From Nitrosopumilus sp. (GTDB taxonomy: Archaea; Thermoproteota; Nitrososphaeria; Nitrososphaerales; Nitrosopumilaceae), in contig OZ244651.1 in NCBI GenBank assembly GCA_965218695.1, forward strand, positions 512,001 through 576,000: a stretch of DNA of 64,000 nucleotides, written 5' to 3'. The position numbers and the translations under genes were made by a program. Below, one piece after another: positions 12,521 through 48,514 of the stretch (position 1 is the first letter of the stretch; the number at the start of each line of letters is the position of its first letter). The notes beneath the pieces were generated by a model. That model was not told the DNA's origin, searched no databases, and saw only the letters and a program-made list of their open reading frames with translations.

Positions 12521-12558
12521 GCAATGGAGCCTCGGTCTACGTTTAAGGGGGTGAATCC

Positions 12559-12582
12559 GGTTATAGCGATTCTACTATAACC
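12559..12582. promoter_or_regulatory. palindromic site GGTTATAG-N8-CTATAACC
   Basis: 8-bp perfect arms; related sites at 14760 and 22430. Confidence 0.6.
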
Positions 12583-12845
12583 TCCGGCAAAATTTTGCCC
12601 CATAATATCCATAACACGTTAGTTATTCATGGTTTTATAATGTTTATATATGATATATATGTAATATAAACATGAGCGATTCAACGGCCGAACAGAAGTC
12701 ATTCATTTCAAGGTTCGATTCGACATGTAGCGGGTGTAACAAGTCCTGGAAAGCCGGCGACGAGTTGTACAAAATCGGCGACCGCTGGTGCAAGGATCCA
12801 AATTGTGGTTCTGCACAGGCCGGAGCTGCCCCACAGACAGATGAG

Positions 12846-12998
12846 GCAACACCAGCAACACCAGCAACACCAGCAACACCAGCAACACCAGCAACACCAG
12901 CAACACCAGCAACACCAGCAACACCAGCAACACCAGCAACACCAGCAACACCAGCAACACCAGCAACACCAGCAACACCAGCAACACCAGCAACACCA
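12846..12998 (+). repeat. perfect 9-bp tandem repeat (gcaacacca)x17
   Basis: 153 bp read directly; encodes (ATP)17. Confidence 0.97.
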
Positions 12999-13026
12999 GC
13001 ACCAGCAACAACACAGCCTGCACCTA

Positions 13027-14114
13027 TAGTGTCGATCAAAAGTTTTTTACATTTAGGGACTTTCTACAGATAAACTCCATTACGTCAATCCTTGGACGCG
13101 CGGTCCTGAAATACTCCGACATCGCGTTGCGCATCTGCACTATCGTGGCATAGTACTCGGACACCAGCACGTTACGTTTTGCCTGGTGCCAGTACTCCTC
13201 CACGCCGCTAAGCTCGGGCGTTGCAGCTGGAAGCCACATGACCTTGATGTCGGGATTTTCCTTTAGAAATTTCATCACGATCCTTGACTTGTGTTGTGGC
13301 GCATTATCCATGATTACGACCACCTTTCCAAAATGCCTGACCAGATCCTTGAGATACTGCAGGACCGTCTCCTTGTCAAATTTTTCATGCGTCCTGAAGA
13401 ACTGCCTGCCGTCTGTTACAATGGAACCGTATGCCACCACCTTTCCGTGCCGTCCCTTGTATGTCGTGACAATCGGCTCGCCTTCTGGCGACCAATACTT
13501 TACGCCCGATGCCGGATCGTCTACAAATATGGCCTCGTCAAAGACGACTGGGAGAAAACCCTTCTCTTGCAGGCGTGAAATCCGCCTTTTGGCGTTGCGC
13601 TGCCACTGCCTGATCTTTTTGATCTCTGGCCTGTTGACGTGGATGCGCTGGACCGTCTTGGCAGACAGGCCAAGCCTGTGCATTATCTTTGTGACGTTTG
13701 AAATGTGGTATGTCACCTTGAATTCTTTGCGTATGTTTTCTTTGAGCTGCTTTGGAGTTGTGATGCTGCCAGTCCTTGCTGCAAGCCCCGCAATCTTCTC
13801 AAGCCCGACCTTGGGCGGCCTGCCCGGGCGGGGCCTGTCTTCCAGGCCTGCAAGACCCTCGCTATCAAAATGCCGGACCCAGCTTGTGACAGTGTGCGGG
13901 TCGCAAAAGCACAGTGATGCCACCTCGGATACGCCCAGCCCCCTGATCTTGACCATGCAGACGGCGTGGATCCTGTCCTTTATGGTTCCCCTCTTCTCTT
14001 TCTTGTAGGCCTGGATTAACAGCTTTTTGCTTTTTTCATCCATGTGGGCGGTAGTGCGGAGTGATCAAAAAATGTTACGCTCAGACTGACGTAGAAGACT
14101 TTTGATTGACACTA
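13027..14114 (-). mobile_element. IS630-family insertion sequence
   Basis: TIR tagtgtcgatcaaaagt / acttttgattgacacta; TA duplication. Confidence 0.92.
13036..14043 (-). CDS. IS630-family transposase
   Basis: GLEDRPRPGRP, FDEAIF, MDNAPQH, PELSGVEEYW. Confidence 0.9.
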   Translation of the reverse strand: MDEKSKKLLIQAYKKEKRGTIKDRIHAVCMVKIRGLGVSEVASLCFCDPHTVTSWVRHFDSEGLAGLEDRPRPGRPPKVGLEKIAGLAARTGSITTPKQLKENIRKEFKVTYHISNVTKIMHRLGLSAKTVQRIHVNRPEIKKIRQWQRNAKRRISRLQEKGFLPVVFDEAIFVDDPASGVKYWSPEGEPIVTTYKGRHGKVVAYGSIVTDGRQFFRTHEKFDKETVLQYLKDLVRHFGKVVVIMDNAPQHKSRIVMKFLKENPDIKVMWLPAATPELSGVEEYWHQAKRNVLVSEYYATIVQMRNAMSEYFRTARPRIDVMEFICRKSLNVKNF

Positions 14115-14461
14115 TACCCTGGACCGGTTCACCAAAGCATTTGAGGCCTGGCTCGCGCTGCACAACCGCGTATGGAACGCCGCAGTCGACCTGGCAAACT
14201 CCGCTGACCCGGATGCAGACCACCGAGGCAGGATAATCATGGCCCAGGTATTCTACAAAAAAGGCATCGATACCATAAACGCACAACTCTAACCCCCCTT
14301 CTTTTTCTTTATTCTAAATACACATAATATTTATATTATATATTACCGTATAATATGTATGAAGATCCATTTCCAGCAGGCCAAACTTCTTGATATTGAC
14401 GGTGCCCATGTGTACGAGACGCCTGCAGGAAGACGCTATCCCAGCATTAGGTATTGTTAAC

Positions 14462-15153: not shown

Positions 15154-15300
15154 TTACGGTTTTGCGCCGCATTTGGGGCAGCCGTTGGCGACCCAATCAT
15201 CTGCGTCGATCTGCATCTGGTCATCACCTTTCTCGGTTCGCGGGTACGTCTTGGTGTATCCGCATTTCGGGCACGGCCTGGGTGTTCCTCCAAGTGTCAT
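15154..15300 (-). CDS. zinc-ribbon microprotein (48 aa)
   Basis: CPKCG...CPKCG; ATG at 15300 is 26 nt after CCCCC-TTATAC. Confidence 0.7.
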   Translation of the reverse strand: MTLGGTPRPCPKCGYTKTYPRTEKGDDQMQIDADDWVANGCPKCGAKP

Positions 15301-15362
15301 GGCCACATGGTTTGGAAATGGTATAAGGGGGTGGCCGGCGGTCACACGTTATATCATGTTGA

Positions 15363-16164: not shown

Positions 16165-16235
16165 TGAAATACTGCCCAAACGCACTTCGCGACGCTGACG
16201 ATTTCTGAAATCCCCCCTTATATTCAAACCATTTC

Positions 16236-16586
16236 ATGAAGTCAATGTTTAACAAAGAGGATAATGCGGACACAGAAGTCGGCAAAATCGGGAAGAAGAT
16301 GATCGTCGGGGCTGTTTTCATCGCGTTTTTTCTAGCAGTCCTTCCTCCCCTCACCGGGGTTGACCTAGTCAACCTATGTGTGAAGGCAGAGGAAGGTCAG
16401 GCAACCGACGCCAATGGATGCAAGACGCTGGAACAGAACAGGTTGAGCGAAGGATACGATAACATCAAACCGTACATAATACTAGGAATGGACATGCTCG
16501 TCGTCGTATTGGTGTTGGCGATGCTGTTCGGGCCGGGCGTGCAGTTGGCCAAATACCAGTTCGTGCCAAAAAATGATTCGCGTTGA
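16236..16586 (+). CDS. small two-TM membrane protein
   Basis: two hydrophobic segments flanking a Cys-pair loop; C-run/TATA promoter suggests a start at 16245. Confidence 0.7.
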   Translation: MKSMFNKEDNADTEVGKIGKKMIVGAVFIAFFLAVLPPLTGVDLVNLCVKAEEGQATDANGCKTLEQNRLSEGYDNIKPYIILGMDMLVVVLVLAMLFGPGVQLAKYQFVPKNDSR

Positions 16587-16959
16587 CAGGCCATTTGCCC
16601 TGGCAGCCGGTGCCCTGTTTTTTTATTTTGTCCTGAATCAAGAATGTCCTGTGGCGTTGATCCCGGCGCTGGCAGGAATCTGGGTATTGGGAGCTTATGC
16701 CGACTTGAAATCCACATTCGATCGTCCCAATATGATGAAGTACGAATCAAACAAACTGCTCACGGGTTGCATACGGCGGTACGGGACCAGGCGCGCCGTA
16801 TCAGTAACCATTTCCTATGAAATTGGGCTCATGGCACTGTTGTCCGTATTGATGAACCGGCCGATGGGATTCGATGCGGCTGATTTTGCGTTCGTTGCCG
16901 GCGTTTTTGGTATGTATCATCTGTATTGCGTGCGCTCAAATAATAATTTCAAAGCCTGA
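16573..16959 (+). CDS. multi-TM membrane protein
   Basis: 3-4 hydrophobic segments, D..ST...ESN motif; overlaps the upstream gene. Confidence 0.65.
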   Translation: MIRVDRPFALAAGALFFYFVLNQECPVALIPALAGIWVLGAYADLKSTFDRPNMMKYESNKLLTGCIRRYGTRRAVSVTISYEIGLMALLSVLMNRPMGFDAADFAFVAGVFGMYHLYCVRSNNNFKA

Positions 16960-17634
16960 TTATTTGGCAGTGGTCTTGGCCGTGCAAAGCGTGTTACCAT
17001 CAGCTGAAAATACTTCGACCAAGTAGCCTGATTTTTTGCTTACCGGACTGCCAAAATCCTCCGTGTCGCTCCAGGCATGCGACCCAAACTCGGCAATATT
17101 CTCCGGTCCGATGTCCGGCTCCCACGGCTTGTCTTCCACCTTTATATGCATGGAAAATTCCTTGCTCCAGGTGCCGCTGTTCTGCGCCTCCACGACGTAG
17201 TATATGTTGCTGGAATCAACATCGAATACGTCAAACCTCAATATCTCACACGACTCCTGCGTCATGAGCGTGTCTGCAAGTCCGCTGCCGAACGTGTACG
17301 CGATTGCCACGCCTGCTATCGATGCGCCTACGAGCATCATCATGCCTGCGATCTCGGTAACCATGCGGACGCGGTGGCGGACACGGCCGCGCCTGGGCGG
17401 GTCTATGAAGCACGGGCTGCGCCTGATTAATTTATCATTGATGTACAGGTCCAAGACGTAAAGCCTGCCGTCCGGCGTGTTTTTCAGGACGACGAGTTTC
17501 ATGGCATGGCCGTTTATATCGATGGATTCGCCGGGTTTCAGCACGCGCACGCGTTCTGCAAGATCAGCCGGCTTTTGTACCAAGTGCCTGCACATCCAGA
17601 GGAAGTGCCCGTAGCGTTTGTTTTTTTCGATCAT
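16960..17634 (-). CDS. pilin-like protein with long N-terminal extension
   Basis: internal basic stretch RRGRVRHRVR then MVTEIAGMMMLVGASIAGVAIAY; QNSG and GYLVEV motifs; starts 4 nt after the VirB4-like stop. Confidence 0.6.
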   Translation of the reverse strand: MIEKNKRYGHFLWMCRHLVQKPADLAERVRVLKPGESIDINGHAMKLVVLKNTPDGRLYVLDLYINDKLIRRSPCFIDPPRRGRVRHRVRMVTEIAGMMMLVGASIAGVAIAYTFGSGLADTLMTQESCEILRFDVFDVDSSNIYYVVEAQNSGTWSKEFSMHIKVEDKPWEPDIGPENIAEFGSHAWSDTEDFGSPVSKKSGYLVEVFSADGNTLCTAKTTAK

Positions 17635-19485
17635 TGTTTCACCGCGGCTGCGTGTCGAAATACTTTGTCGTTTCCTCTTCGGTGGCCTCGAACTTTATCT
17701 TGACGCGGTGTTTTTCAGTTATCATCAGGCCCTGACCCTTGGAGAAGCGGGTCAGCCTTTCCTTCTCCTCGTCTGTAAGTTTCATTACCTCCTGGGCATT
17801 TTTTGCCGCGTCCTCTTCAAGGCCCATCAGGATTTTCGTCCCCACGTTGTCTATCATCTTGCCCTCGGCGCCACGGTCGTGGGATATGTCGTCGACTCGC
17901 TGCGAGATGAAGACGAAATACACGCCGTGTTTTCTGCCCGTCCTGACCATCTGTTCAACATACGACATGGCACCGCGCATCTTGCCAAGCAGCCAGCCCT
18001 CATCTATCACGATTATCTTCCGGCGGTTCTTGGGCAACCCCAGCACGCGGTTCCATATCTTGTTCAGTACGAGCAAGAGTATGAGGATCTCGTGCGGCTT
18101 GCCTGTGGCGTTGTCCAACGAGATGATGGTACGGTCGGTAATTTTTGATTCGCCTTTCATGATGTTTGCCAGTGGCCCGTCGACCAGGTGTTCGAGGTAT
18201 TTTTTGGCATCAACGCTCACTTTGTCATACATGTCATGCACCGATTTCACCTTGTCGGCATGTTTGTAAAACTCGTTTGCCACCGCCTTGTCCTTTTCAT
18301 CGGCTTCCGTGACGCTTGCCAGGATGCCGGCAGCGTCGGCCGGATCTAGAATCTTGAACGGGTCGATCCCGAGCTCCTTGTCGCTCGTAATTATCATGCC
18401 GTCAAGGCCATAGTATTCGCGGTGGTGGTAATACTCATTGTTCGGGTCGATTATGAACACGGCCGGGCCTTCCTGCGTCCCGTCCTCGTCAAACAGCCGC
18501 TGTATCAGCCTCTTGATGAATATTTTCGCCGTAAACGACTTGCCGGAACCGGTGGTGCCTATGATTACGATGTTTCCGTTGGTACGCCTCATGATATCAT
18601 AAATGATCGGACCGCCGGAATCCATATTGTATCCCAATATCACTCCGTTGGGCGTCTCTATCATCTCGGCCGAAACGAATGGATACACGATGCTGAAAAA
18701 CGACTGGTCGCACGTGATGTAATGGGTCCACTTGCCATAATACAACATCCCCTGCCGGCTGACCGTGGCATCAAACATGCCGCCAATTACCCGCAGGTTT
18801 TTCTTAAAGTCCTTGGTGTTGGCTTTCAGATCCTTGAGTGTCTTACCATAGAAAATATGCGTAATCCGGAACTTTTTCAAACTCCGCGCTGACATGTTAG
18901 CCCTGCTGTCAAAAATTTATGATCCATCCAATTAAAACCAGAATATGCCGGTTCATACTGTTGTCGAATCAGGAAACAAGTGACCTGCAAAAAGAGAACA
19001 AGGCTCTCAGATACATGATCAAGCGCCAGGACGCTGACATCAAGCGCCAGGACGCTGACATCAAGCGCCAGGACGCTGACATCAAGCGCTTGGAGGCAGC
19101 CGCCAAGCACGAGCAAAGCCTGTGGAGCACGCGGGACGGCTCCGAGTCCGGAGCCGCAGGGGAGCCCGCCCTGCTGCACCGCGTGGAGGTGTTTGACGAC
19201 GTCATCGGCGTCGGGAAGAAGCTTCATGACGCGACGCTGAAGGGCAGGGGGCAATTCCAGTACATACTTGACAGGGCCGAGGCATGGATAAGACAAAGCG
19301 GCAAATCCCCGCTCTTCAGGAACGACGAGACGAGGGCGTCGGATCCCGGGAACCGCTGCAAGCTGTACCCAAGGCACGCGCTACTCATGTCACTGATGTA
19401 CAAAAAGGGCAACCCCACGCAGGGCGCGCTTGCGGCATTCTTTGGAATAGACCAGGCGACCGTGTCCCGGTATATCGATGTACTA

Positions 19486-20586
19486 TACTGACGATCAAAA
19501 GTTTGTGCACAATGCCTCATATTTTCGGCTGGTAAATTTGAGGATGTCAAGCTTGAACCTGGCGGTTCGATAATACAACGAAACTGCCCGGTGCATGTCC
19601 TGAAATGTCCGGTAATATTCCGAGACGAGCAGGACGCGCTTTCCTTGGTGCCAGCATTCCTCCATCGCGTTGAGGTACGGCGAGCCCTTTGGCAGATAGA
19701 TCATCTTGACATCCCTGTTGCTGCGCAGAAATTCCTTTACCAGTTTTGAGCGGTGCTGCGGGGCCCGGTCTGCCGTCACTACCACCTTGCCAAAATGCCG
19801 GTGCAGATCCTTGAGGTATCTGACAAACGTGGGTCCGTCAAATTTCTCGTACGTCCGGAAAAACTGCCTGCCGTCTTTTGCGATCGAGCCGTACGCTGCG
19901 ATCCTCTTGTGGCTGCCGGTGTACGGCACGCTTATGGGATGGCCCACCAGGGACCAATATTTACGGCCGACTATCACGTCGTGTATGAAGATTGCCTCGT
20001 CCTCCATTACCGTGGTAAATCCCTCCTTTTCTAGGCGTGAAACGCGCTTGTTGAAGCGGTATTTCCAGTTCTGCACGGCCTTTTTGTTGGCCCTGTTAAC
20101 ATGGACTTTCCGTGGTGCCTTCGGGGACAGGCCGTACTGGTGCATGATCTTCCTGACGTACGTGATGTGAAGCTTTACGCCCGTGTCATGGTGTATGTTC
20201 TGTTGCAGTTCCGAGGGCGTGATTTTATGGCATGCCGTCTTTGCAATTATTCCGTCGATGACGTCTTGCGGGATCTTTCTGGGCCGTCCGCATCTGGGAA
20301 GATCACGGAGGCCTTGCAGGCCTCCGTCATCGAAGCGGCTCAACCAGTTGCGGACCCAGTTTGGGCTCCGTCCTTGGATGTCGGCAGTCTCCTCCACGGT
20401 CATGTTGAACACGCGAACCATGCGTACCGTGACCATCCTAGCCCGAACCTTGTGGTCTTTTTCTTTTTTGCACGCTTTTTTTAGTTCTTCCAGTTTGGAG
20501 TCGTCCATGTCTCCATGAAAGAAAGTCTGATCTAGAAACTTTGCGGTTGGCTAGGGCATTTGCTCAAAGACTTTTGCGTGTCAGTA
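19486..20586 (-). mobile_element. IS630-family insertion sequence
   Basis: TIR tactgacgatcaaaagt / acttttgcgtgtcagta; TA duplication. Confidence 0.92.
19495..20508 (-). CDS. IS630-family transposase
   Basis: GLRDLPRCGRP, EDEAIF, ADRAPQH, PKGSPYLNAMEECW. Confidence 0.9.
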   Translation of the reverse strand: MDDSKLEELKKACKKEKDHKVRARMVTVRMVRVFNMTVEETADIQGRSPNWVRNWLSRFDDGGLQGLRDLPRCGRPRKIPQDVIDGIIAKTACHKITPSELQQNIHHDTGVKLHITYVRKIMHQYGLSPKAPRKVHVNRANKKAVQNWKYRFNKRVSRLEKEGFTTVMEDEAIFIHDVIVGRKYWSLVGHPISVPYTGSHKRIAAYGSIAKDGRQFFRTYEKFDGPTFVRYLKDLHRHFGKVVVTADRAPQHRSKLVKEFLRSNRDVKMIYLPKGSPYLNAMEECWHQGKRVLLVSEYYRTFQDMHRAVSLYYRTARFKLDILKFTSRKYEALCTNF

Positions 20587-22228
20587 TAGACGGGGTGCTT
20601 GAGGCGGCGCTGCCCACTGCTGCCAACATATCAAAGGAGATAGCAGGCACGGAGACAAAAGAGGATCTCAAAAAAATAATTTCCGGGCCTGACGGGGGCA
20701 TCATGATGATCGACGGCACGCACTGCCCCATACAGAGGCCGGACGAAAAACAGATGAGGAGCATGATGTATTCGGGCAAGAAGAAGAAATTCACGCTCAA
20801 CACCACAGTCTGCATAAATGAAAACGGGGTGATAGTCGCCATATCCGGCAGCACCGTGGGATCCGTCCACGACATCACGCTGCTCAGGGAGAGCCCGCTG
20901 CCGTTTGGAAAATGGTGGGACCGCATGTGCGACGAGGACACCCCCGAAGAGGACAGGATCCACACCCTTACTGACCGCGGCTACAAGGGAATCGCAAAGG
21001 ATCTGCCCGGCACAAACACCCTGCAGCCGCACAAGAAGACCAAGAACCACAAGCGCTTTACAAAGGAGGAAAAGGAGCACAACCACGCCGTCAACTCGGC
21101 CAGGGTAAAGGTGGAGCACTCCATCGGCAGGCTGAAGCGGTACGGCCGGCTTACCGCGCCATACAAAGGAAAGATTGGCGACTTTAACAGGGAATTTAAC
21201 ATAATAACCGGACTCGTAAACCTGGACCTCCTGTGGAACCAGATGAAGAAAGGACCTCCTTCAGGTAGCACGCTGGGGCCGGTAATAAACTGGGAAGAGG
21301 CAAACGTCCCCGGCAGCGCCGTTTCAAACAATTAATTCCGTGCACATCGCGGTGCTGCAAGGCTGCGCACGTTATTTTGTATTTCTGGCAGGACAGGATC
21401 CCCACATGGCTAACATGGCGAGAATTAAATCAGAATTTTTAATATTTTCTGGGTTTTTCTGGTTTAACCCAACGAAATGGAGGGATTACGCATGGCTTCT
21501 CATATACCATGGCAGTCATGCCGAACCTGTAAATCTTGTCCATGCCCTTGTGCAGCCCCTCCTCGACGCTCTCGGCCTGCCTGAATTCCTCGGCGGCCCT
21601 CTTGTCGGTTTCTGCGCGCTTAATCAGCATGGAACGCTTCCGCCTCATGGTGTTGAGCGCGTCCTCTTTTTCCATCGGGTTTATCCAGACGTCAATCTGG
21701 CCGCACGTTGCAAATACTTCGTGCACCCACGCCCAACGAAGCTGCGCCGGCACGTCGTACAGTGCCAGGCAGCGAACATGCCCTTCCGGGTATTCGATGT
21801 ACCCGAGCTTTTCCTTGGTAAACCGGATCCTCTGGTGCTCACCGTCTACCGTGTATTCGTAGAGCAGCGAATCCAGTATGGATGTAAGTGGCTCGTTTGA
21901 GGCCACCAGCACCTGCAGCACGTGGCGTTCCTCTGTCTTGCCTGCAACCAGCAGCGGGACGGCCTTGCGGGTAAACGTTATGCGGATGGGTTTTTCAATG
22001 GAGCGCAGCAGGTCGAAAAAGTTGCCGAGTTTTTGCCTCTGTTTTTCCACCGACAGGGAGTGGAAGTTCGACGCGTCTATGGTGTAAAAGTACTCGAATT
22101 CGCCTTTCCTTTTTTGCTGCTTCTGTTTTGCCGGCACGATTTGAAAATTTGCGTGGCTTAAAAGGGGGGATTATCGGCCGGTGGCTGGTCCGGATTTAGC
22201 TCTTTTACCATTTCCTGCCAATCAACCC

Positions 22229-22384
22229 ATGCCAAAATGCATTCGTAACGGTTGTAAAGCTGACGCGTCCAAGTTGGGGCGCTGCAGTTGCGGCCACTAC
22301 ATGTGTACAGAACATGCCTGGCACACCGACGGCAAGAACGTATCGTGTCCTGGCTGTACGCGCCCTCCCCCAAGATCCAAATAA
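22229..22384 (+). CDS. Cys/His-rich zinc-finger microprotein (51 aa)
   Basis: MPKCIRNGC...CSCGHYMCTEH...CPGC; TTTTAC 26 nt upstream. Confidence 0.65.
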   Translation: MPKCIRNGCKADASKLGRCSCGHYMCTEHAWHTDGKNVSCPGCTRPPPRSK

Positions 22385-22429
22385 TGCTTGATCTTTTTTT
22401 GAATGGACGCTGTCCTGGTTGTTCAGACA

Positions 22430-22451
22430 GTTATAGCGCAATTACTATAAC
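22430..22451. promoter_or_regulatory. palindromic site GTTATAG-N8-CTATAAC
   Basis: same arms and 8-nt spacer as 12559. Confidence 0.6.
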
Positions 22452-22453
22452 CG

Positions 22454-22720
22454 TTACTTGGTAATCGTGTTCTTCGGAACAAGTTTGAGGTGCTTGGTAA
22501 AGTCAAATGCCGCGTCGCAGCGCGTGCATGTCGCGGTCCGACGCCGGTGATCCGTGACGAGCCGGTTCTTGCCGCCGCAGGAGGGGCATACCACGTGCAT
22601 CGGCATGTCGCAGCATTCCAGGCACATGTGATCCGATCCCACCAAAATCACGAATTTCGCGCCACATATCTTGCATTTTGGCGCGAAAAAATGAGCCTTG
22701 CCACAGCCACAATTTGCCAT
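22454..22720 (-). CDS. multi-CxxC zinc-finger protein
   Basis: CGCG, CKIC, CLEC, CPSC, CTRC; ATG 26 nt after TTTTAT. Confidence 0.7.
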   Translation of the reverse strand: MANCGCGKAHFFAPKCKICGAKFVILVGSDHMCLECCDMPMHVVCPSCGGKNRLVTDHRRRTATCTRCDAAFDFTKHLKLVPKNTITK

Positions 22721-22740
22721 GCCACGGAGCACCCGGAATG

Positions 22741-22757
22741 ATAAAAGGCCCTTTTAT
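22741..22757. promoter_or_regulatory. back-to-back TATA boxes (ATAAAAGGCCCTTTTAT), bidirectional promoter
   Basis: near-perfect palindrome; starts at 22720(-) and 22780(+) lie 26 and 28 nt from each TATA. Confidence 0.65.
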
Positions 22758-22779
22758 GTCCAGTGACGGCATGGGGTGA

Positions 22780-24354
22780 ATGTTTGGGCGGATATTTGGC
22801 GGTAAAAAGAAAAAACGGAAATCCCATGATGCCGACGCGAGCGGGACGGAAAAGACGTTCAGTTCCGATTTTGCCATAACCAAACTGGAGCCCATACGCA
22901 CCGGTGCTCGGGTGCTTGACGAGTATTCCGTGGATCTGGCAAAGGTGAGCATAATGTCTGACGGCCTGTGCAATATCACGCTGCCGGCAATATCCGAAGG
23001 CGCCGAAAAGCTGCTGCTCCGACACATGGACGGCATATACGAGAAATTTTCCGGCGCGCCCGACGAGAACCACGCGGCAGTAATAGACAGGTACATAGAC
23101 GACGCCGACATGGACGAGGACGACTTCAAGGTATGGCGAAAGGAACGGGAAGTGATCCGTTATTACCTGCACGCCGAACTTGACGGCTTTCGCACCGTCG
23201 ACGTGCCGATGAATGATCCCCATATCGAGGACGTCATTTGTGTCGGGTACGGCAAGGCCGTGGGAGTCATACACAAAAAGTTCGCCGACATGCGGATGCT
23301 CAAGACCAACATAAGGTTTGGCACGGCCGACGACGTGAATGAGTGGATCCAGATCATCGCCACCAAATACGGCAAGCCGCCGGATTTTGCCAATCCAGTA
23401 ACGTACGGCTGGACGCCGGAAAACCACAGGCTGACGTTTGTCGGCAAAAGGGTATCTCCTGACGGACCGTCATTCGCGATAAGGAAGTTTCCAGACAAAC
23501 CATTAGTAATTACCCACCTGATAAACGACGGCGTGATCAGCCTGGAGTTTGCAGCATACCTGTGGATGCTGATTGACGCCACGCCGTTTTTGCTCATAGT
23601 CGGCGAGACCGGCAGCGGCAAGACCACGCTGATAAACGCCCTCATGTGCATGTCGGATCCGCGCATGCACGTGATAGTAATAGAGAATACCAGGGAGCTG
23701 AAGATGCCGCACTATTGGACCAAATACGCCATAGCCAGTGAGGGCAGCATCTCCACGGAAGGCAGTGCTGGCCTGAAAAATACGAGTATCATGAAAATGG
23801 TGGAAATGACGCTGCGGAAAAAGCCGCACTTCGTGATAATCGGGGAGGTTCGCGGCGAGGAGACCAGGGAGATGTTCCAGGGGGCCGTGGCCGGACATGG
23901 CGCCATGACGAGTTTCCACGCCGCCGGCGTGCCGGAAACGTTTGCCAGGCTAAAGTCGGATCCGATCAACATCACCGAAAACCAGCTGATGAACCTCTGG
24001 GGCGTGCTGCATGTCAACAAGCTCAAGACCCAGAAGGGCACGACCGCCAGGCGGATGCTGACTTTTGCAGAACTTTTCATCAAGCCGGACGGCACCACGG
24101 ATCACCAGAAGGTGTTTTGGTACGATCATGCCACCGACACCATAATGCCCAACGACACCGACGAGATAATCAAGAACAGCAAGAAGATTCTGCATGCGGC
24201 AGGCCGGGCCGGAATATCCGACGTGGCAGCTGAACTGGAGAGGCGCAAGGTGCTGCTGCAGGAGTGCATCGACGCGGGCGCCGACACGGTCCACAAGGTG
24301 TTTGCAATCACGTCCAAGTGCTATTCACACGCTGACCCAGCCGACATGACATAG
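22780..24354 (+). CDS. type II/IV secretion ATPase (TadA/VirB11/ArlI-like)
   Basis: DPHIEDV, SFAIRKF, GETGSGKTT, IENTREL, IIGEVRGEE, GHG.MTSFHA. Confidence 0.93.
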   Translation: MFGRIFGGKKKKRKSHDADASGTEKTFSSDFAITKLEPIRTGARVLDEYSVDLAKVSIMSDGLCNITLPAISEGAEKLLLRHMDGIYEKFSGAPDENHAAVIDRYIDDADMDEDDFKVWRKEREVIRYYLHAELDGFRTVDVPMNDPHIEDVICVGYGKAVGVIHKKFADMRMLKTNIRFGTADDVNEWIQIIATKYGKPPDFANPVTYGWTPENHRLTFVGKRVSPDGPSFAIRKFPDKPLVITHLINDGVISLEFAAYLWMLIDATPFLLIVGETGSGKTTLINALMCMSDPRMHVIVIENTRELKMPHYWTKYAIASEGSISTEGSAGLKNTSIMKMVEMTLRKKPHFVIIGEVRGEETREMFQGAVAGHGAMTSFHAAGVPETFARLKSDPINITENQLMNLWGVLHVNKLKTQKGTTARRMLTFAELFIKPDGTTDHQKVFWYDHATDTIMPNDTDEIIKNSKKILHAAGRAGISDVAAELERRKVLLQECIDAGADTVHKVFAITSKCYSHADPADMT

Positions 24355-24494
24355 GCGATTTTATTGTTTGTACGGTTAATGTCTCATGGTTCACGTTCAC
24401 TTGAACCGGAGTCTCGTGTGGGGATGAACAATTTTTGGGACTATGAAAAATTTAGTGTCATAGAATAAGTTTTAATAGCCTGATAAATTATTAT

Positions 24495-26531: not shown

Positions 26532-26586
26532 AATGGGAACGAACCAGATAACCCATTTTTCAAGACTTGCCGCATCACAATGCCAT

Positions 26587-26670
26587 AGAAAATATGCGTA
26601 ATCCAGAATTTTTTCAAACTCCGCGTTGACATGTTAGCCCTGCTGTCAAAAATTTATGATCCATTCAATT
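26587..26670 (+). mobile_element. solo left end of the ISL2-like element
   Basis: ~85 bp nearly identical to 18850-18935. Confidence 0.85.
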
Positions 26671-26793
26671 TTATAGCTAAGCTGTACGCCGATGTTACCA
26701 GTTTTTGTGCCTGTGGATACAAAATTGGGTTCGTCAGTCATCAATACTCATCTGAATCATCCCCCACGATGAATTAAATGTGTTGTCAAGCGG

Positions 26794-28018: not shown

Positions 28019-28329
28019 GAGCTTGATCAAAAAGCAGACAGATAATCCGCCGAATCTCAATTCAGAGAAGATCCGTATTCATCCCTCGAAGATGTTACAG
28101 AACCATACTAAATACCCCAGTCGTGTGTGGACAGGCGTGATTGGATGGACAGGGGGATGGCATCCGTGCTGGCTCTCGGCGTGGGCATGCTTGCAATCGG
28201 ACTGACGCTACACTACTACTTGATTTGAATGTCGGAAACGTGCCGGCCTTCCTAAAGTTGCATGCGGGCCCGGCCCGTGCCTCGCCGACCTGAAAAAATC
28301 CCCTTTTATCATATGCCATAGTTCAACCC

Positions 28330-36820: not shown

Positions 36821-38767
36821 TCACGTCAAAGTTCCGACTATTTCCTCAAGGAATGGCAGCGCGACGCATATTATCGTGCCAAACACGGCAAGCATGCATA
36901 CGTGCATGCTGTGCTTCATGGTAAAGTACGCTATCTTGGAGACCAGGAAACCGATCAGTACGGAGCACTCCACTATGAGAAAGCTCGACTGCTTCTTGAT
37001 CTCTTCGGTCTGCTCTAGCGTAGGGAAATTGATCGGCATCGCCTCCAGCCCCTCAAGCTCTCCTGTTATACTGCTTGTCATCTCGGAAGTTATGAGCAGC
37101 ATCCCCACCATGAGCAGCGGTATGACATAGCCCATTATTATAGATCCCCGAAGCGACGCTATCATTTCGCGCCTGGACTCGACGTACTCCTTGATAAAGT
37201 TGGCAAACGCCTGCAGCGAATGGGTGTCGCCGCCCCCGCTCTCCTGCACCTGCGATAGCACGAAGAACAGTATACGGGACAGCCAGGACGTGGTGCGGGC
37301 CGACTCTGCCGCGGCCGCCAATGACTTGCCAAACATCATCTGTTTTGATATGTCGCGCAATACCGGGCTCAACGCGTCATTCTTGTCCTTGTTTTTTGCC
37401 CTAACATTAACTGCCTCGCGTATCTCCATGCCTTCCAGGCGGCTGTCGGTGACGAATTGCGCGAATGCCGGCAACGCATTGTCCATCCTGAACGTGTCAG
37501 AAAAATGCCTTCTTGCCATGAATGCGTTGGCCCCGCCCCAGACAGCTACTGCGACCCCCAGGACTCCCCAGAGCGGCACGCCTGCAATCAGCGTGACCGG
37601 GACCGTCAGGGCCGCCATTACCAACGGCGGACGATACAGCGGGACAGAGTTGTGCGTGCGCGGCTGCTTTCCGTCCAGCGACATCAGCAGCACGACGATG
37701 ATTATAGGTAGTATTAACATCACCATTATCGTCATGGAGACGGCGTCTTTTCCTGTGGCGACAAACGTGGTTGCAAGCGCCAGGATTGGCATGACTGCCA
37801 TGATCATCAGCACCAGCTGGGCGATCCCGTTTGCCTCAGACGTGTAGTTTTTCACGCTGTTGCGCATGACGCGGAACGCGGATTCGGTGGCCGCGGCCAT
37901 GGTGCTTGCCGTGTTGGTTCCGCTGGTGGTGTAGGCGGCTGCGTAGTTTGCCACAATCTCCTTGAAGGATTCGTTCGGGTGGGTCTCTGCCACCTTGCGG
38001 AGTGCGGTTGTGTGCGACATGGCCATGTACTCGACGTTGCGCTGGAAGATCAACGCGTCCTGGCGCAGCACGGGAAACAGCGTCGTCTTGGATCTCGTTA
38101 TGTGGGTGATGAACTCGTAGAATGACACGCCGACCTTTTCCATTATGCTGGCGCACGCGATGAATACTGGTAATTCATGGCCGATTGCCGATTTTCTCTG
38201 CGACTTTGCGTTCTTTAGTTGGATCAAACCGCTGAACAGCACGCCGGCCGGAACCGCACACAGGCCCAGAAACCCGGGGTGGAAGAGTACGGCAAGCGCG
38301 ACTGCCACCGCGACTGACGGCGGCACCGATAGTATGGCGTGCATTATGCCGTGCCGGACAATCCTCATGGAGTCGTTGGCGTGGCCGGACTCGAATATCG
38401 CGCTGCGCACCTTTTCTGCCATGTATTTTTCCAGTCTGCGTATCGGGGTGATTGACATGAAGGGCTTCAGCATGGTCATGGCGCGGTCCGCAGTCACGGG
38501 CTTGGCCTCAAGCAGGGCGCCGAACCTGCCCTGCAGCACGGCCACGCCGGATCCCGTGACCTGCTGCTTCTTTTCCTTTTTTGCCGTCCTGCTGCGGAGC
38601 AGCGGCCTGATTCTCTCGTGAAACACATCCGCGACGTCTATCTGCGTGAGTACCACGAGTATGATGAATGCCGGTATGGATAATGCAAACAGGCCGGACT
38701 GGCCGAGCGCCATAAGCACGCCCATTATACCGAGCATTCCCAACAAAGAGGTCACGGGCAGGCGCAT
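36821..38767 (-). CDS. type II secretion F-domain (TadC/ArlJ-like) pilus platform protein
   Basis: two repeats of ELP.F / ALP.F ... G.S/GKSL..A ... SG followed by TM segments; about 9 TMs. Confidence 0.85.
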   Translation of the reverse strand: MRLPVTSLLGMLGIMGVLMALGQSGLFALSIPAFIILVVLTQIDVADVFHERIRPLLRSRTAKKEKKQQVTGSGVAVLQGRFGALLEAKPVTADRAMTMLKPFMSITPIRRLEKYMAEKVRSAIFESGHANDSMRIVRHGIMHAILSVPPSVAVAVALAVLFHPGFLGLCAVPAGVLFSGLIQLKNAKSQRKSAIGHELPVFIACASIMEKVGVSFYEFITHITRSKTTLFPVLRQDALIFQRNVEYMAMSHTTALRKVAETHPNESFKEIVANYAAAYTTSGTNTASTMAAATESAFRVMRNSVKNYTSEANGIAQLVLMIMAVMPILALATTFVATGKDAVSMTIMVMLILPIIIVVLLMSLDGKQPRTHNSVPLYRPPLVMAALTVPVTLIAGVPLWGVLGVAVAVWGGANAFMARRHFSDTFRMDNALPAFAQFVTDSRLEGMEIREAVNVRAKNKDKNDALSPVLRDISKQMMFGKSLAAAAESARTTSWLSRILFFVLSQVQESGGGDTHSLQAFANFIKEYVESRREMIASLRGSIIMGYVIPLLMVGMLLITSEMTSSITGELEGLEAMPINFPTLEQTEEIKKQSSFLIVECSVLIGFLVSKIAYFTMKHSMHVCMLAVFGTIICVALPFLEEIVGTLT

Positions 38768-38846
38768 GCGTATGAGGCTCGGTATGCTTAAAACGGCAAT
38801 TGTGCGCGAAAAAACACCCTTTTAAAGAAACCGTTTTTTCAATTCA

Positions 38847-39476
38847 ATGAAGTCCACAATAACGAAGTCCATGACTACAAGATCCCTAACGAGGAAGAGG
38901 AGGGCCGTATCGGCAATCGTCGGAATCATGCTCGGCCTCGGCCTTACTGCCGTGGCAGCAGGCGGACTATACGTGATGACGTCTGACCTTTCTGACAGCG
39001 CGGTATCCATAACGTCTGTAGAGATACAGAATGCCAGGGCGTACAATACCGGAAATGTAGCATATGTGTCATTGAGTATCAAGAATACTGGTACAGATGC
39101 AGCATCGGATTTGAGTGCAGTAGTATTGCTTGCATGTAATGGCGAGGCCGCCGCAAAGGCCACACTCACGGATGCTACACTCAAGGCTGCAACCACAGAC
39201 TGCGTCGCAGCCCAATACGCCAGTCCTCCAACACAATCTACAGCCCCAGGTACGCTAGAATCGATACCCATAGGTGCAGAAATAGATGATTTGGCACCAG
39301 GCGGAACTGCCAGCATATCAGGTGGTGTCGCACTCACAGATTCTGCCAGTACGACTGCGCGAGACTCAGGGGATAAAATTGCGTTTGCCGTAGGACAAGA
39401 ATACCTCATAGAGATATCAGGTACGACAGCAGCAAACGAACCCATTATTCAGACTGCGACAGTCAGAGTACGATAA
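38847..39476 (+). CDS. archaeal type IV pilin
   Basis: class III signal peptide RKRRA|VSAIVGIMLGLGLTAVAAGG; IKNTG; GQEYLIEI. Confidence 0.88.
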   Translation: MKSTITKSMTTRSLTRKRRAVSAIVGIMLGLGLTAVAAGGLYVMTSDLSDSAVSITSVEIQNARAYNTGNVAYVSLSIKNTGTDAASDLSAVVLLACNGEAAAKATLTDATLKAATTDCVAAQYASPPTQSTAPGTLESIPIGAEIDDLAPGGTASISGGVALTDSASTTARDSGDKIAFAVGQEYLIEISGTTAANEPIIQTATVRVR

Positions 39477-40777: not shown

Positions 40778-41359
40778 CTAGTAAATCATCAGGTCCTTCT
40801 CTTCCAAAAGCGCGTGCAGGTTATGCACGGAGCGGAACACGTCATCCTCTGTCTTGCCGCCGGTGCATACAAGCTTGCCGGAGGCAAACAGCAGTATGAC
40901 TGTTTTTGGATCCACTATCCTGTGTATGAGCCCTGGGAACTGCTCGGGCTCGTACATGCTCCTTGGCAGCGTGCGCGCGGCATTTTCAAGGTGGATTTTT
41001 CCGCCCAGGTCGATTGCGGCCACGATGTTCTGGACAGTGACTGTTGCCTCGTTTCGTATGCTGATGCCGCCTTTCCTGAGTTTTTTCACCACGGTGTTTA
41101 CCGCGGTAATTGCCAGTTCTTCAGACTTGGCACCCGTGCAGACCATCTTGCCGGTCCGGAATACCAGCGTGGCAGTCTTTGGCACCGCGAGCCTGAATAC
41201 CAGTCCTGGGAACTGTTCCGGGTGGTACTCGGTGCCAGGAAACCTTTCCTGGATGTCGGGCAGATTCATCTCCTGGTCAACCGAAGCCGACGCCACCACG
41301 TTCTCTATCCTAATCACGGGCTTGGTCTGCGGCATGGTTTGGGTTTTTCTGCCTGCCAT
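40778..41359 (-). CDS. tbp: TATA-box binding protein
   Basis: two repeats IENVVAS..YHPEQFPGLVFR..VFRTGKMVCTG / VQNIVA..YEPEQFPGLIHR..LFASGKLVCTG. Confidence 0.97.
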   Translation of the reverse strand: MAGRKTQTMPQTKPVIRIENVVASASVDQEMNLPDIQERFPGTEYHPEQFPGLVFRLAVPKTATLVFRTGKMVCTGAKSEELAITAVNTVVKKLRKGGISIRNEATVTVQNIVAAIDLGGKIHLENAARTLPRSMYEPEQFPGLIHRIVDPKTVILLFASGKLVCTGGKTEDDVFRSVHNLHALLEEKDLMIY

Positions 41360-41476
41360 ATATCAGTGATGGGGCAAGCCAGCCATCTACTGACACGTAC
41401 GTGAACGAGGAGGCAATATTTCTTAGCGGACGGATGTCTTTTTGTAATAATTCGGCGAGGGGTGCGACAGGACGCG

Positions 41477-41808: not shown

Positions 41809-42630
41809 TTGAAGGCTCATGAAAACCCGTTTTTAACAGAATCGTCCACGGTGTTTCATGAGCGCGTGTTCCTGCCCGTCCCGACCCCGGTACTGGACGA
41901 AACAGCAGGCGAGACCGTATGTTCCAAGTGCGCGTACGTGTTGGATTCCTCCATGGAGCAGCCAGGCAAGAACGAAAATTACTCCATGTTTGGCAGCCGC
42001 GCCTCGTCCACCCAAATCGTCGGAAGCAAAAGAATGCGGCGTGCAAGCCAGATGTCCAACAAGGTAGACCAGAAAAGGCTGAACGCGACCTACATGACAA
42101 AATCATGCTGCACCAAGCTCGGCATGCCGCAGGCAGTGGGAGACCGCGCCATGATTATGTTTGACAGGTTCCGGCATACGCTCCGCGGCAGGCGCCTGGC
42201 AGACCTGGTGGCCGCCACGCTCTACATGGCATGCAGGGAGCACGGCGTGACGCGCAGCATGAAAGAGGTGGCAATGGCAGTCAATGCGAACCGCAGGGGC
42301 GCAAAGCGCGCATACACCATACTGCATAAATCAATGGATGCAACCCTGCCGGTCCAGGACTCTGCCGGTTTTGCCACGCGGCTGGCATCTGATCTCGGTT
42401 TGCCAGAAAAGACTGCACGGAGGGCATTGAAAATACTGGAACAACTTGATGCTTCCGGCCGGGCCGAGGGGCGCAGCCCAATCACTCTTTCGGCGTACGC
42501 CATATACGCGGCCTTGGACGGCACGGAGGGCGTCACGCAGAGAAGGATAGCCCAATCCGCGGGAATAACTGACGTCTCGCTGAGGCTTCTGAACAAGGCG
42601 TTCGGGTCGCCGACTGGCACCGCATCATAG
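41809..42630 (+). CDS. tfb: divergent transcription initiation factor IIB (TFB); probable 5' frameshift
   Basis: LDETAGETVCSKCAYVL half zinc ribbon; two cyclin repeats (LRGRR..DLVAATLYMACR; GRSPITLSAYAIY; TQRRIA..AGITDVSLR). Confidence 0.85.
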   Translation: MKAHENPFLTESSTVFHERVFLPVPTPVLDETAGETVCSKCAYVLDSSMEQPGKNENYSMFGSRASSTQIVGSKRMRRASQMSNKVDQKRLNATYMTKSCCTKLGMPQAVGDRAMIMFDRFRHTLRGRRLADLVAATLYMACREHGVTRSMKEVAMAVNANRRGAKRAYTILHKSMDATLPVQDSAGFATRLASDLGLPEKTARRALKILEQLDASGRAEGRSPITLSAYAIYAALDGTEGVTQRRIAQSAGITDVSLRLLNKAFGSPTGTAS

Positions 42631-42686
42631 TGTTCCTATTCAGCGTAGAAACACAACTTAAAACATGCGCACGCGTCCACCACATA

Positions 42687-45871: not shown

Positions 45872-46039
45872 GGATCTAGACCTCTTCGCCCCATGACGGA
45901 TCCGGATGGAGCACGCAGTTAGAGCAGACTATATTCACCATGATTTGTATTACTGAGAATGGTATAAGCGGTTCTGTTCAAATAGAGTGGTCTGGCACAT
46001 ACGGGTTGGATGGATGTTGGTTAGGATCCATAATTTTGA

Positions 46040-47659
46040 GTATCTGTGTAGTTTTTTGATCAAATGTTGAACTCCATATCTACAATCAGAAAATCCGCGT
46101 CTGTCTAGTTTTTTGAAACTATTTTTGATCACTTGATCGAGTTTTTCTCTCCGTCCTAATTTTTAGATCATTGCTGCCCACGGTTTGCATATGTCTGATG
46201 ATAATTCCGAGTCAAGGATTGCAGAACTGGAGGAAAAAGTGGAGATGATGGCAGGGCAGCTGGCCGAAAAAGACCGGCAGATAGCCAAACTCACTGATCT
46301 TTACGCTGCCGCCCTCAAACAGATCCAGGATCTCACGGCAGAGTTGCAGGAGGCAAAGGGCATCATATCGGCTGCCGTTGCAAGGAGCATCGGCGCAAAA
46401 CCTGACAAAAAGACGGGCAGTACCCGGCGCCGCGCAAAGGGCAAGGGCAAGGCCAAGGGCAAGCCAAGTGACCACAAACGCACGGGCCTTGCGCGTCCTG
46501 AAAGAATAGACGCAGAGGAGACGGCAGATCCCCACACGTGCGACAACTGCGGCAGCTCCGACCTCTCCGAGTGCGTATCCACGTACACAAAGGTGGTAAG
46601 GGAGGCTGCCAAGACGGAACTAAAGCACATCAAGGTGACAGTAAAGAGAAGGCGTTGCAGGAACTGCAAGAGGACCGTGTCCGGCAGGACTCCGCTGGCA
46701 CTGCCAAACTCCAGGTACGGGATCAACTTTATGATAATGATGGTCATCCTCAGGCTGCACGGCATGTCAGACCTCAGAATATGCAATATTGTCATGATGA
46801 TGTACTCGGCAAGAATCACGGAATCTGCGATAAACCGCATGGTGTGCAGGATGGCCCGGGAGCTCGGGCCGCTGTACGAGAAGATCAAGGAGGAGGTAAG
46901 AAACTCGCCTGCGATAAACGGGGACGAGACAATCTGGCGCGTCGACGGCACGAACTACTGGCTGTGGGCGGTGGTAACAAGGTACGCCGTAATCTACGAG
47001 GTGCACCGCCGCAGGAACTCGAAGGTTCCAAAAAAGATGCTCGGCAAGGACTACCCGGGATGCGTCACGTCTGACTCGTGGGCCGCGTGGAACGTCATCG
47101 GATCCGAACACCAAAAGTGCCACCTTCATTACGCCCGGGACATCAAGGACACCCTGAAATACAAGAATCCCGGCTACGACTACAAGCGTCACGCAAGGAC
47201 GCTGCGCGCGATACTGTGGGACTCGCACATCGACGGCGCCGTTCCGGGAGGGGCAGACGCGCTTGCCGCAAAGAAGAGGCTGGATCGTCGTATCGCGTCA
47301 CTTATCGGCAGGCTCGAAAAGGACCGCGACTGCAAGCACTGCAACAGGATGCGCAAGAGGCTGGTGCGGGAAAAAGGCCACCTGTTTGCGTTTCTGGAGA
47401 CAGACGGCGTCGAATACCACAACAACCGGGCAGAGCGGGCCATCAGGCCGTGCGTCATCCTGCGCAAGAACAGCAACGGGAGCAGGTCAAAGAAGGGCGC
47501 AGATGCCATTGCCACGCTGATGAGCATCAAGCAGACATGCAAGGCAAGGGGAGATGATCTTGGCACGATCCTGCGCGAGGGCCTGGTCCTATGTCAAAAA
47601 AATACATAGTTTCTTGGAGACATGGAATTCAGCATTTGATCAAAAAACTACACAGTTAC
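46040..47659 (+). mobile_element. IS66-family insertion sequence (copy B)
   Basis: same 27-bp TIRs as 10223..11887; no TSD. Confidence 0.92.
46185..47609 (+). CDS. IS66-family transposase
   Basis: near-identical to 10273..11742; GDETIW, HNNRAERAIR. Confidence 0.9.
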   Translation: MHMSDDNSESRIAELEEKVEMMAGQLAEKDRQIAKLTDLYAAALKQIQDLTAELQEAKGIISAAVARSIGAKPDKKTGSTRRRAKGKGKAKGKPSDHKRTGLARPERIDAEETADPHTCDNCGSSDLSECVSTYTKVVREAAKTELKHIKVTVKRRRCRNCKRTVSGRTPLALPNSRYGINFMIMMVILRLHGMSDLRICNIVMMMYSARITESAINRMVCRMARELGPLYEKIKEEVRNSPAINGDETIWRVDGTNYWLWAVVTRYAVIYEVHRRRNSKVPKKMLGKDYPGCVTSDSWAAWNVIGSEHQKCHLHYARDIKDTLKYKNPGYDYKRHARTLRAILWDSHIDGAVPGGADALAAKKRLDRRIASLIGRLEKDRDCKHCNRMRKRLVREKGHLFAFLETDGVEYHNNRAERAIRPCVILRKNSNGSRSKKGADAIATLMSIKQTCKARGDDLGTILREGLVLCQKNT

Positions 47660-47660
47660 A

Positions 47661-47819
47661 AATGGTCAAATTCCTACTGCGGTGGTAGCACACACGGCTT
47701 TGGCCTGTAGTGGTGGAACCACCGGGGACATTGACAACAGAAGTGAATACATCCTACAAGTAAGTGGAACTTCTGACGGCGACATAATTTCAAAAACAAT
47801 ATCAATCCGAGCCCGCTAG
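47661..47819 (+). pseudogene. 3' fragment of a second type IV pilin gene
   Basis: ...EYILQVSGTSDGDIISKTISIRAR* aligns with EYLIEISGTTAANEPIIQTATVRVR* of 38847..39476; oligo-T follows. Confidence 0.65.
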
Positions 47820-48200
47820 AACCCAAATCCTTTTTTCTATTTTTTCACACCCCGGAGCCACGCGGCTGCGCCGCACCATGATAACGGCACCTACGGGCAA
47901 CATGTTCGGGGCCTCACGCACTACGGTCCAGACTTTGCTTAGGGACTGTCCAAACCGGAACAGATGCCGCTCCATCTCGTGCCCGTGCAGCACGCGGCAG
48001 CGCCGTCCCTTGCCAGCGGCCGGCAAAACACGACGGCGCGACTGCCAGGCAGGCCCGGCGACCGTCACGGTCCTTCCAAACCCACGTGCCATCTACCGCA
48101 TGCCACTATTACGGTTTAAATGAGACACCAATGCCATCCGGCACGATGTCCCACGATACATACGAGACCATAACCAAGGCCGTGGACGCCGGCAAACTCA

Positions 48201-48470
48201 AGGAGCCGTTTCGCGGCGCTTGACGGCGACACCACAAACATGCTGAGGGACAGCATGGCAAAGATATGGAAGAATACCGGCAAGACTGTCATAATGGTCA
48301 CACACGATCCGCTAGACGCGGCCGTGCTGGGCACCAGGATAATACGGCTGGCAGGCAAACCCGCCAAGATAGTCCAAGACTACCCCAACGATCTCCCGTT
48401 CCCGCGGGATCCTTCCGACGCGAAGGCTTTCGCCGAAAAGATGATCGACGACGCGAAGCGTTTTGCCTGA
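48201..48470 (+). pseudogene. C-terminal fragment of a NitT/TauT-type ABC transporter ATPase
   Basis: EPFAALD D-loop, KTVIMVTHD H-loop; no Walker A or signature motif. Confidence 0.7.
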
Positions 48471-48514
48471 CACGCACGCCCTACCCCTTATACCATTCTC
48501 GAAACAATCAACAC

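Follow-up and report, generated by a model that had tools for sequence, protein, structure and literature searches.

All thaumarchaeal integrative-conjugative elements (ICEs) found by Krupovic et al. in 2019 encode homologs of TFIIB, and the word 'promoter' is absent from the accessible text of that paper (PMC6563490). TFIIB genes in archaeal pilus loci were described by Makarova et al. in 2016, in an account whose available portion leaves promoters unmentioned. In Sulfolobus, the paralog TFB3, which lacks the helix-turn-helix (HTH), activates the UV-induced ups pilus genes and the ced DNA-import genes, presumably as a bridge, according to the part of the report at hand (PMC6101591). So far, the TFIIB genes on thaumarchaeal conjugative elements and in many archaeal pilus loci have been unexplained, and it has long been an open question if the TFB paralogs of archaea, like bacterial sigma factors, differ in the promoters that they recognise. 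Here, we analysed a 64-kb window of a Nitrosopumilus genome (G000; contig C1:512001-576000; window coordinates count from position 1 of this stretch), in which a run of C's directly followed by a TATA-like box precedes the pilus and transfer genes of an integrated element (element A, window 12-49 kb). With a probability of roughly 85%, judged from sequence, this C-run/TATA combination would be a core promoter class that is specific to the element lineage and not to the host, and the element probably controls its pilus and transfer genes through a transcription factor of its own.

The genome (2.63 Mb, 52.8% G+C) contains amoA and lacks mcrA, and the host is therefore an ammonia-oxidising archaeon. 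Element A, with its type IV pilus module and VirB4/HerA ATPase, is probably an integrated conjugative-type element. A second copy, element B (C1:713363-744152), is syntenic with it at 60-84% amino acid (aa) identity, but at 39-54% for two small open reading frames (ORFs). In Pfam searches, the gene content matches the thaumarchaeal ICEs of Krupovic et al. (2019): a VirB4/TrbE-type ATPase, T2SSE and T2SSF proteins and a weak Pilin_N match were found, together with a TFIIB homolog (window 41809-42630 in element A and C1:714460-715350 in element B).

All eight sites listed in a preliminary description of this DNA are present. In each, three to six C's run directly into TTWWA (W, A or T), and an ATG or GTG follows 26-28 nt after the first T. 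The genes behind the sites bear out the view that the motif is the mark of a group of transcription units for the pilus and for transfer. On the reverse strand, CCCCCTTAAA (12542..12551) stands 26 nt before the ATG at 12520 of orf162 (12032..12520), whose product has a pilin-like hydrophobic N-terminus, no match in Pfam or NCBIfam, and homologs in element B and in genomes G163, G361 and G158; the paralogous promoter in element B reads CACCCTTAAACGT. Also on this strand, CCCCCTTATA (15322..15331) lies 26 nt before the ATG at 15300 of a 48-aa ORF (15154..15300) whose translation shows two CPKCG motifs and is zinc-ribbon-like. On the forward strand, CCCCCCTTATA (16212..16222) is located 27 nt before the ATG at 16245 (the second ATG of its ORF, the first being at 16236), which opens the overlapping pair of orf113, a membrane protein gene, and orf128 (16245..16959); genes homologous to this unit in G158, G361 and G323 are preceded by (C)CCTTAAATC. 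The VirB4/HerA-type ATPase unit (16960..22137, reverse strand), with AAA_10, DUF87 and TraG P-loop matches in Pfam, has CCCCCCTTTTA (22159..22169, reverse strand) 26 nt before its GTG at 22137. The earlier assignment of this gene to VirB4 holds as to family, but the frame opening at 22137 covers only the N-terminal fragment (21439-22137), as two insertion sequences (IS; 19495-20508 and 20541-21335) cut off the C-terminal part (17639-18895; both fragments located by Pfam and tblastn), which is followed by orf224 (16960-17634, reverse strand).

The remaining four sites are on the forward strand. CCCTTTTA occurs twice, at 22749..22756, 28 nt before the ATG at 22780 of a PilB/FlaI-type secretion ATPase (22780..24354; T2SSE in Pfam), and at 38817..38824, 27 nt before the ATG at 38847 of an archaeal type IV pilin (38847..39476), whose Pilin_N and UpsA matches are weak and both under the cut-offs. 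CCCCTTTTA (28300..28308) stands 26 nt before the GTG at 28330 of two giant ORFs with a 4-nt overlap (28330..36287; 1652 and 1000 aa), which have no family match and have homologs in related elements; the element B paralog of this promoter reads ATCCCCTTTTAT. Finally, CCCCTTATA (48484..48492) lies 27 nt before the ATG at 48515 of a 70-aa Cys/His-rich ORF (48515..48727). Small zinc-ribbon-like Cys-rich ORFs (48-70 aa) are in fact found behind four C-type promoters (window 15154-15300, reverse strand, and 48515-48727, forward strand; C1:638885 and C1:508994), and judging from their sequences these four may be candidate small regulators.

As the preliminary description had it, the C-run is absent upstream of the gene at 24495, the MmeI gene, rpl15e and the XPB-like helicase gene, the annotated start of rpl15e being doubtful. 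The gene at 24495 (24495..26531, forward strand), which encodes a winged HTH protein with a C-terminal TFIIB repeat and is specific to the element A copy, has a host-type promoter (ATAAG-TTTTAA at -25) with no C-run. The promoter of the PilC/TadC-type membrane protein gene (36821..38767, reverse strand; T2SSF in Pfam) reads GCCG-TTTTAA at -26 and is G/C-rich but not a C-run.

Compared with ordinary host promoters, the element promoters differ in both sequence and register. Among 1005 host ORFs with tightly bounded ATG starts, the upstream profile is A-rich at -37 to -32 and T/A-rich at -30 to -24, position -1 is often C (0.39), and no Shine-Dalgarno signal was detected. This positional profile indicates that the host is largely leaderless, and the portion of the GeneMarkS-2 report at hand places 11 of 11 Thaumarchaeota in the leaderless group (PMC6028130). 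The earlier claim of leaderless transcripts is thus upheld for the host overall, while for the element sites initiation at the start codon is our inference. Of 220 host genes with TTWWA at -24 to -30, 108 have A directly before the T's, 62 have C and 50 have G; the box starts mostly at -28 to -30, and A makes up 0.38-0.46 at the five positions before the box. In 18 element-region genes, the base preceding the T's is C in 16 and G in 2, and the box starts at -26 (9 genes), -27 (4), -28 (4) or -25 (1), so that it begins about 3 nt nearer the start codon than host boxes. When the 13 sites of elements A and B were anchored at their start codons, C was found at -30, -29 and -28 in 13, 13 and 12 sites, and T at -26 as well as TTWWA at -26 to -22 in all 13. 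Directly before the box, C's stand at these 13 sites in place of a purine/A-rich TFB recognition element (BRE); an A-rich tract is seen only further upstream, where A prevails at -37 to -35 (7/13 sites). At the presumptive initiator, +1 is A or G in all 13 sites and -1 is C in nine of them.

The C's therefore take the positions of the first T's of the host TATA box, with the A-rich tract remaining at about -37 to -33, and two registers fit. First, the element promoter may have a TATA box with C in its 5' half. Second, the box may be shifted 3 nt toward the start, which places the C's in the TATA-proximal BRE positions. The original idea of a C-run that acts as a BRE abutting TATA is right in that the C's stand directly before the box, but it corresponds to just one of these registers. 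In one low-GC relative, the positional profile was too flat to define the TATA register, and a host-promoter control drawn from the TFB loci of relatives was unusable, being dominated by one orthologous gene. In G323 (C1:504001-544000, loci L101/L102, local positions 22330-22360), two divergent C-type promoters overlap in the palindrome TTAAAGGGCCCTTTAA, in which the C-run of one promoter is the G-run of the other.

It is the position of the motif that is non-random. By raw number, the window shows just a modest excess, with 11 occurrences of CCCTTWWA as compared with 4.94 +/- 2.19 in 100 dinucleotide shuffles, one of which reached 11. The whole 2.63 Mb contains 119 occurrences, 26 of them in one IS66 family. 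When a site was called positioned if the start codon of an ORF of 45 aa or more lay 26-28 nt downstream of it, 8 of the 9 sites in element A and 5 of the 6 in element B were positioned, against 7/13 at other sites in C1:508-765 kb, 0/26 at the IS66 ends and 8/65 in the remaining 2.37 Mb (Fisher test of element A vs the rest, odds ratio 57, p = 7e-6). Motif discovery between element and host upstream regions was run as a motif-blind scan of all words of 5-6 nt at -36..-18, in which every called gene of elements A and B (50 genes, transposases included) was compared with 2046 host genes. CCCTT was the top discriminating word (10/50 vs 18/2046 genes, p = 2e-10), in agreement with the claim that the C-run is rare at ordinary host promoters, and CCCCTT was found in 5/50 element genes and 1/2046 host genes. 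These gene calls came from a hexamer-based ORF picker (2276 genes, 82% of the genome) with the first in-frame start used, and some of the starts are wrong.

The same data bear on whether the sites are promoters at all, rather than chance matches, recombination or transposition sites, or terminators of upstream genes. A raw count merely about twice the shuffled expectation, and the occurrence of the same word near one end of the IS66 family with its 26 copies, would suit such an explanation. Against it stand the fixed distance of 26-28 nt to start codons, the coincidence with the position of the host TATA signal, the conservation across species upstream of the same genes, and the location of seven of the eight sites between called genes, divergent or at the head of a unit (the eighth, 48484-48492, is inside a 153-aa frame, 48266-48727). 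We consider it very improbable.

Two other groups of mobile elements carry the motif. An IS66-family element has CCCCTTATA near one end (window 59356-59364, reverse strand); with another 25 copies in G000, it raises the raw genome counts of the motif by 26. In every copy, the distance to an antisense 278-aa ORF is 39 nt, never 26-28 nt. GCCGCCCTTAAAAGCC is present at C1:765751, 826295 and 919192; at the latter two, the GTG of a TnpB-like gene (IS605 OrfB-type, with a C-terminal zinc ribbon) follows 28 nt downstream, and no ORF was found behind the copy at 765751. The C-type promoter may, from these sequences, be used by other mobile elements as well.

The motif is also conserved. In element B, six homologous genes retain the C-run and box at an unchanged distance amid diverged flanking sequence. 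VirB4 homologs were detected in 106 of 401 genomes sampled from the class (a tally that includes three unpublished genomes), and for 27 published genomes of the family the VirB4 gene was taken as the longest ORF at each match, the starts of distant homologs being chosen by rule. C followed by TTWWW stands 25-28 nt before one of the first four in-frame starts at 22 of these 27 loci, all with GTG, and the same test with A or with G in place of C gave one locus each. Loci with 33-36% G+C are included, for example CCCCTTTTATTA, TCCTTAAAAG and GCTTAAATG. In VirB4 loci of other families, the combination was found in 3/20, and clade f9 has, by eye, TATATA-type boxes and ATG starts instead. Across ten related 40-kb regions, a tally by eye, which leaves out the listed rows with uncertain starts, gave a C-then-T/A box at about -26/-27 before giant1 in five, giant2 in four, orf116 in three, orf162 in three, the pilin gene in one and the PilB gene in one of two. 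In the low-GC genome G248, CCTTWWA followed at 25-28 nt by the start of an ORF of 60 aa or more occurred three times in 320 kb of chromosome vs two, four and five times in its three 40-kb element regions. The motif has been kept even though the downstream gene has diverged to 31-46% aa identity. The conserved core thus amounts to one or two C's plus the box, and long C-runs occur in the high-GC hosts G000, G158, G361 and G323. Since the relatives are kin and not independent, the cross-species counts are descriptive and carry no statistical test.

Based on these features, we propose the following scheme. At the eight sites, the element's transcription units for the pilus and for transfer would have their core promoters, made up of C's at -30 to -28 that extend upstream in a high-GC host, preceded by an A-rich tract at about -37 to -33 and followed by TTWWA at -26 to -22. 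Initiation would be leaderless at the start codon, with a C usually just before its A or G. A TFB-family factor of the element would work with the host RNA polymerase and TBP to switch this class on, either as a TFB that reads the BRE or as a TFB3-like co-activator. This would give the element a regulon of its own, akin to that of an alternative sigma factor. In a possible cascade, which the host-type promoter of the gene at 24495 would suit, the regulators themselves would be expressed by host factors and would then open the C-type promoters. That an element-encoded TFB-family protein confers the specificity, by reading the C's or as a co-activator, has in our estimate an even chance. Tentatively, we go one step further: the TFB of the ICE lineage and a C-type element fused to half a TATA box could form a portable, orthogonal pair of initiation factor and promoter, which would keep the transfer regulon silent to host TFBs and work unchanged at 33-67% G+C.

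As candidate readers, the TFB and TBP genes were compared. G000 has four TBPs and about six full TFBs. The TBP paralog of element A (window 40778..41359, reverse strand) was rejected as a reader of the C's, as it shares 75-83% identity with each of the other TBPs in G000, three in number, and its conserved motifs are unaltered in the alignment, and no TBP was found in the five related elements checked. On the opposite strand, a 196-aa ORF (window 40814-41404) antisense to the TBP gene gives tblastn matches to all TBP loci, which is an opposite-strand artefact and not a gene. The divergent TFB of element A (273 aa; 41809..42630, forward strand) lies directly upstream of the MmeI gene (42630-45344) and is about 30% identical to the TFBs of the host and genus. 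In the alignment, its C-terminal recognition helix reads ITDVSLRLL where VTEVTIRNR is invariant in five host TFBs; the corresponding helix is ISEAVLREL in a copy at C1:645 kb, VPHQSMQRY in the TFB-like protein of element B and LSQPSFDNL in the 24495 protein. Two of the four zinc-ribbon cysteines are kept, the B-reader stretch is missing, and both cyclin repeats and an HTH-like helix are present; a TFB3-type truncation, with the B-finger and HTH lost and the zinc ribbon kept, is not what this protein shows. The B-reader helps to set the start site, and it may be speculated that its loss would fit the changed distance between box and start codon. This TFB has just two close relatives, one interrupted (C1:644-646 kb) and one split (in G002): a search in other species gave one match of 24% identity, and a scan of the genus added only the split G002 homolog. 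No box is evident before the assumed starts of the TBP and TFB genes.

A second form, a TFB-like protein of 236-244 aa that has a zinc ribbon and in which a single TFIIB repeat was detected, is conserved in G158, G361, G163, G160 and G323 and, by its predicted domains, fits the TFB3-type truncation better than the element A TFB does. G000 has a homolog of it with 31% identity at C1:489770-490444 (reverse strand), 22 kb left of the window, whose frame and start are approximate. In element B, the distinct TFB-like gene at C1:714460-715350 directly follows the orf162 homolog, and full-length TFBs adjoin VirB4 in G144 and G026. As far as gene content goes, a TFB-family gene usually travels with the motif, though not as one conserved type. 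The preliminary description had named either the divergent TFB or the TFIIB domain of the 24495 protein as the reader. The former keeps some ground, since its BRE-reading helix differs from that of the host, but the TFB type is not conserved across motif-sharing elements; the latter is unlikely, as no homolog of the 24495 protein exists in element B or the related elements. Its sole other match in G000 is a C-terminal fragment elsewhere, and G002 has one weak match to the TFIIB domain.

Several observations weigh against the reading of an element-specific promoter class served by an element TFB. The element A TFB, placed with an ordinary TBP and the MmeI gene, has the look of cargo, as this gene neighbourhood suggests, and its split relative in G002 (61-64% identity) has no element genes within 40 kb on either side. 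The TFB type varies among the elements that share the motif, from the two-cyclin protein without B-reader in element A to an unrelated-looking protein of 296 aa in element B and the short single-cyclin form in relatives, and three of the ten related 40-kb regions (G248, G298 and G021) gave no PF00382 match at E <= 0.01. VirB4 is split by IS in both elements A and B, so the regulon may be out of use and the system may be decaying in G000. Moreover, the motif also precedes TnpB-like genes outside the elements and eight other positioned sites in the remaining genome, and the length of the C-run follows host G+C, with one or two C's at 33-36% and three to six at 52-67%, so that part of the run is compositional. 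These last two points are what would be expected if there were no dedicated reader, and the C's merely tuned promoter strength or an inherited weak leaderless promoter were lengthened by high host G+C, since positioned sites would then also occur at a few unrelated genes and TnpB elements. However, C precedes the T's in 22 of the 24 VirB4 loci that have a box, and weakening alone would not demand C. The preference of C over G and A (22:1:1), the persistence of the motif at 33-36% G+C where C is rare, and its sharing by non-homologous genes within one element make a compositional or inherited origin hard to accept, and the motif has also outlived the divergence of the downstream gene noted above. 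An account without a reader is in our view improbable.

A different reader is a more serious alternative, although still an unlikely one. Host TFB and TBP could use TTWWA as a deliberately poor basal promoter, with the adjacent C's being the site, or part of the site, of a separate sequence-specific regulator encoded by the element. This might be an activator that recruits TFB to a weak BRE, as TFB-RF1 and Ptr2 do, or a repressor that occludes TATA, and the TFB-like protein of the element would then act, if at all, as a TFB3-like bridge that does not read DNA. The C's replace A/T-rich positions of host promoters and should weaken the BRE/TATA. A precedent exists in TFB-RF1, which, in the available part of the report, activates promoters having a weak BRE (PMC5937170). 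The short TFB-like protein of the family, with its one detectable cyclin repeat, resembles Sulfolobus TFB3, which on the partial text at hand lacks the DNA-reading HTH (PMC6101591); this likeness, too, counts against a BRE-reading TFB. In addition, conserved element ORFs of unassigned function, including the small zinc-ribbon proteins, could be the regulator. On the other side, the conserved part is very short (one to three C's plus the box) and falls within the TBP/TFB footprint, which is unusual for a separate regulator; beyond it there are only weak, unscored likenesses (A-rich upstream and CAAAC-like downstream), no search for palindromes or repeats having been made; and family searches yielded no candidate regulator.

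The surroundings of the locus are rich in mobile DNA. The window contains at least 11 transposase genes of IS4/IS5, IS630 and IS66 types (5474-6715, 8978-9844, 10273-11742, 13036-14043, 19495-20508, 20541-21335, 26983-27951, 46185-47609, 54053-54790, 57912-59360 and 59393-60799) and no tRNA gene, and G000 is unusually IS-rich and unusually large for its genus, whose other members are mostly at 32-39% G+C in the fetched loci. The VirB4 gene of element B is split by a different IS and at a different place from that of element A. A simple AT-rich repeat (12846-13001) adjoins an IS630-type transposase gene. Two stretches have low G+C (31-37%), namely 52000-54000, with ORFs that have no family, and 61000-64000, with a fused methylase/specificity gene (61192-63837). 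For window 21900-31899, no RNA run that contains this part is listed. The locus is present as contigs in four runs from a single study, and the pieces over 21471-23631 are identical to the window; these contigs speak to the unchanged existence of the locus and not to starts or expression.

The present finding supplies a candidate cis-element for an element-borne TFB factor. Because this cis-element is short, sharply positioned, absent from host promoters and conserved across species and G+C, the idea of such a factor is directly testable. The motif, moreover, offers an easy way to locate, by sequence, the transfer genes of such elements in the genomes of ammonia oxidisers. If the proposal is true, the portable pair of factor and promoter would parallel, in archaea, the sigma factors of phages or ICEs.

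Compared with the ICEs of Krupovic et al. (2019), the present locus is similar in that a VirB4-type ATPase, a FlaI/PilT-type ATPase, a TadC-type protein, pilins and a TFIIB homolog are found together on an integrated element of an ammonia oxidiser. It is unlike them in that this copy is riddled with IS, its VirB4 gene is split, and no integrase, separate VirD4 or ParB partner was found among the ORFs scanned with Pfam, element borders and att sites not having been sought. As with Sulfolobus TFB3, an additional TFB paralog of atypical form is linked to genes for a type IV pilus and for VirB4-like DNA transfer; the B-finger/B-reader stretch is missing from the element A TFB, and the element pilin matches UpsA weakly. 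The accessible part of the Sulfolobus report describes TFB3 as chromosomal, with a motif A(N)TTTC 30-80 bp upstream that is not TFB3-specific (PMC6101591), whereas the element-specific bases here lie inside the core promoter. Against the PDB, the element A TFB matches human TFIIB (E = 4.6e-21) slightly better than Pyrococcus TFB (E = 7.4e-18). In eukaryotes, the upstream BRE (BREu) is a G/C-rich element directly upstream of TATA that is read by the HTH of TFIIB, and in the element promoters, too, G/C-rich bases abut the TATA box. The element motif is, however, a homopolymeric C-run and not SSRCGCC, and the residues aligned with human V283 and R286 were rejected as a cause of the G/C preference, as host TFBs have the aligned V and R as well, so that they explain nothing. 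Halobacterium has multiple TFB and TBP paralogs with distinct regulons, and the several TFB (about six) and TBP (four) genes of G000 recall the same idea of a sigma-like division of labour. Unlike in Halobacterium, the candidate factor here is borne by a mobile element, and its putative cognate promoter differs from that of the host in both sequence and register.

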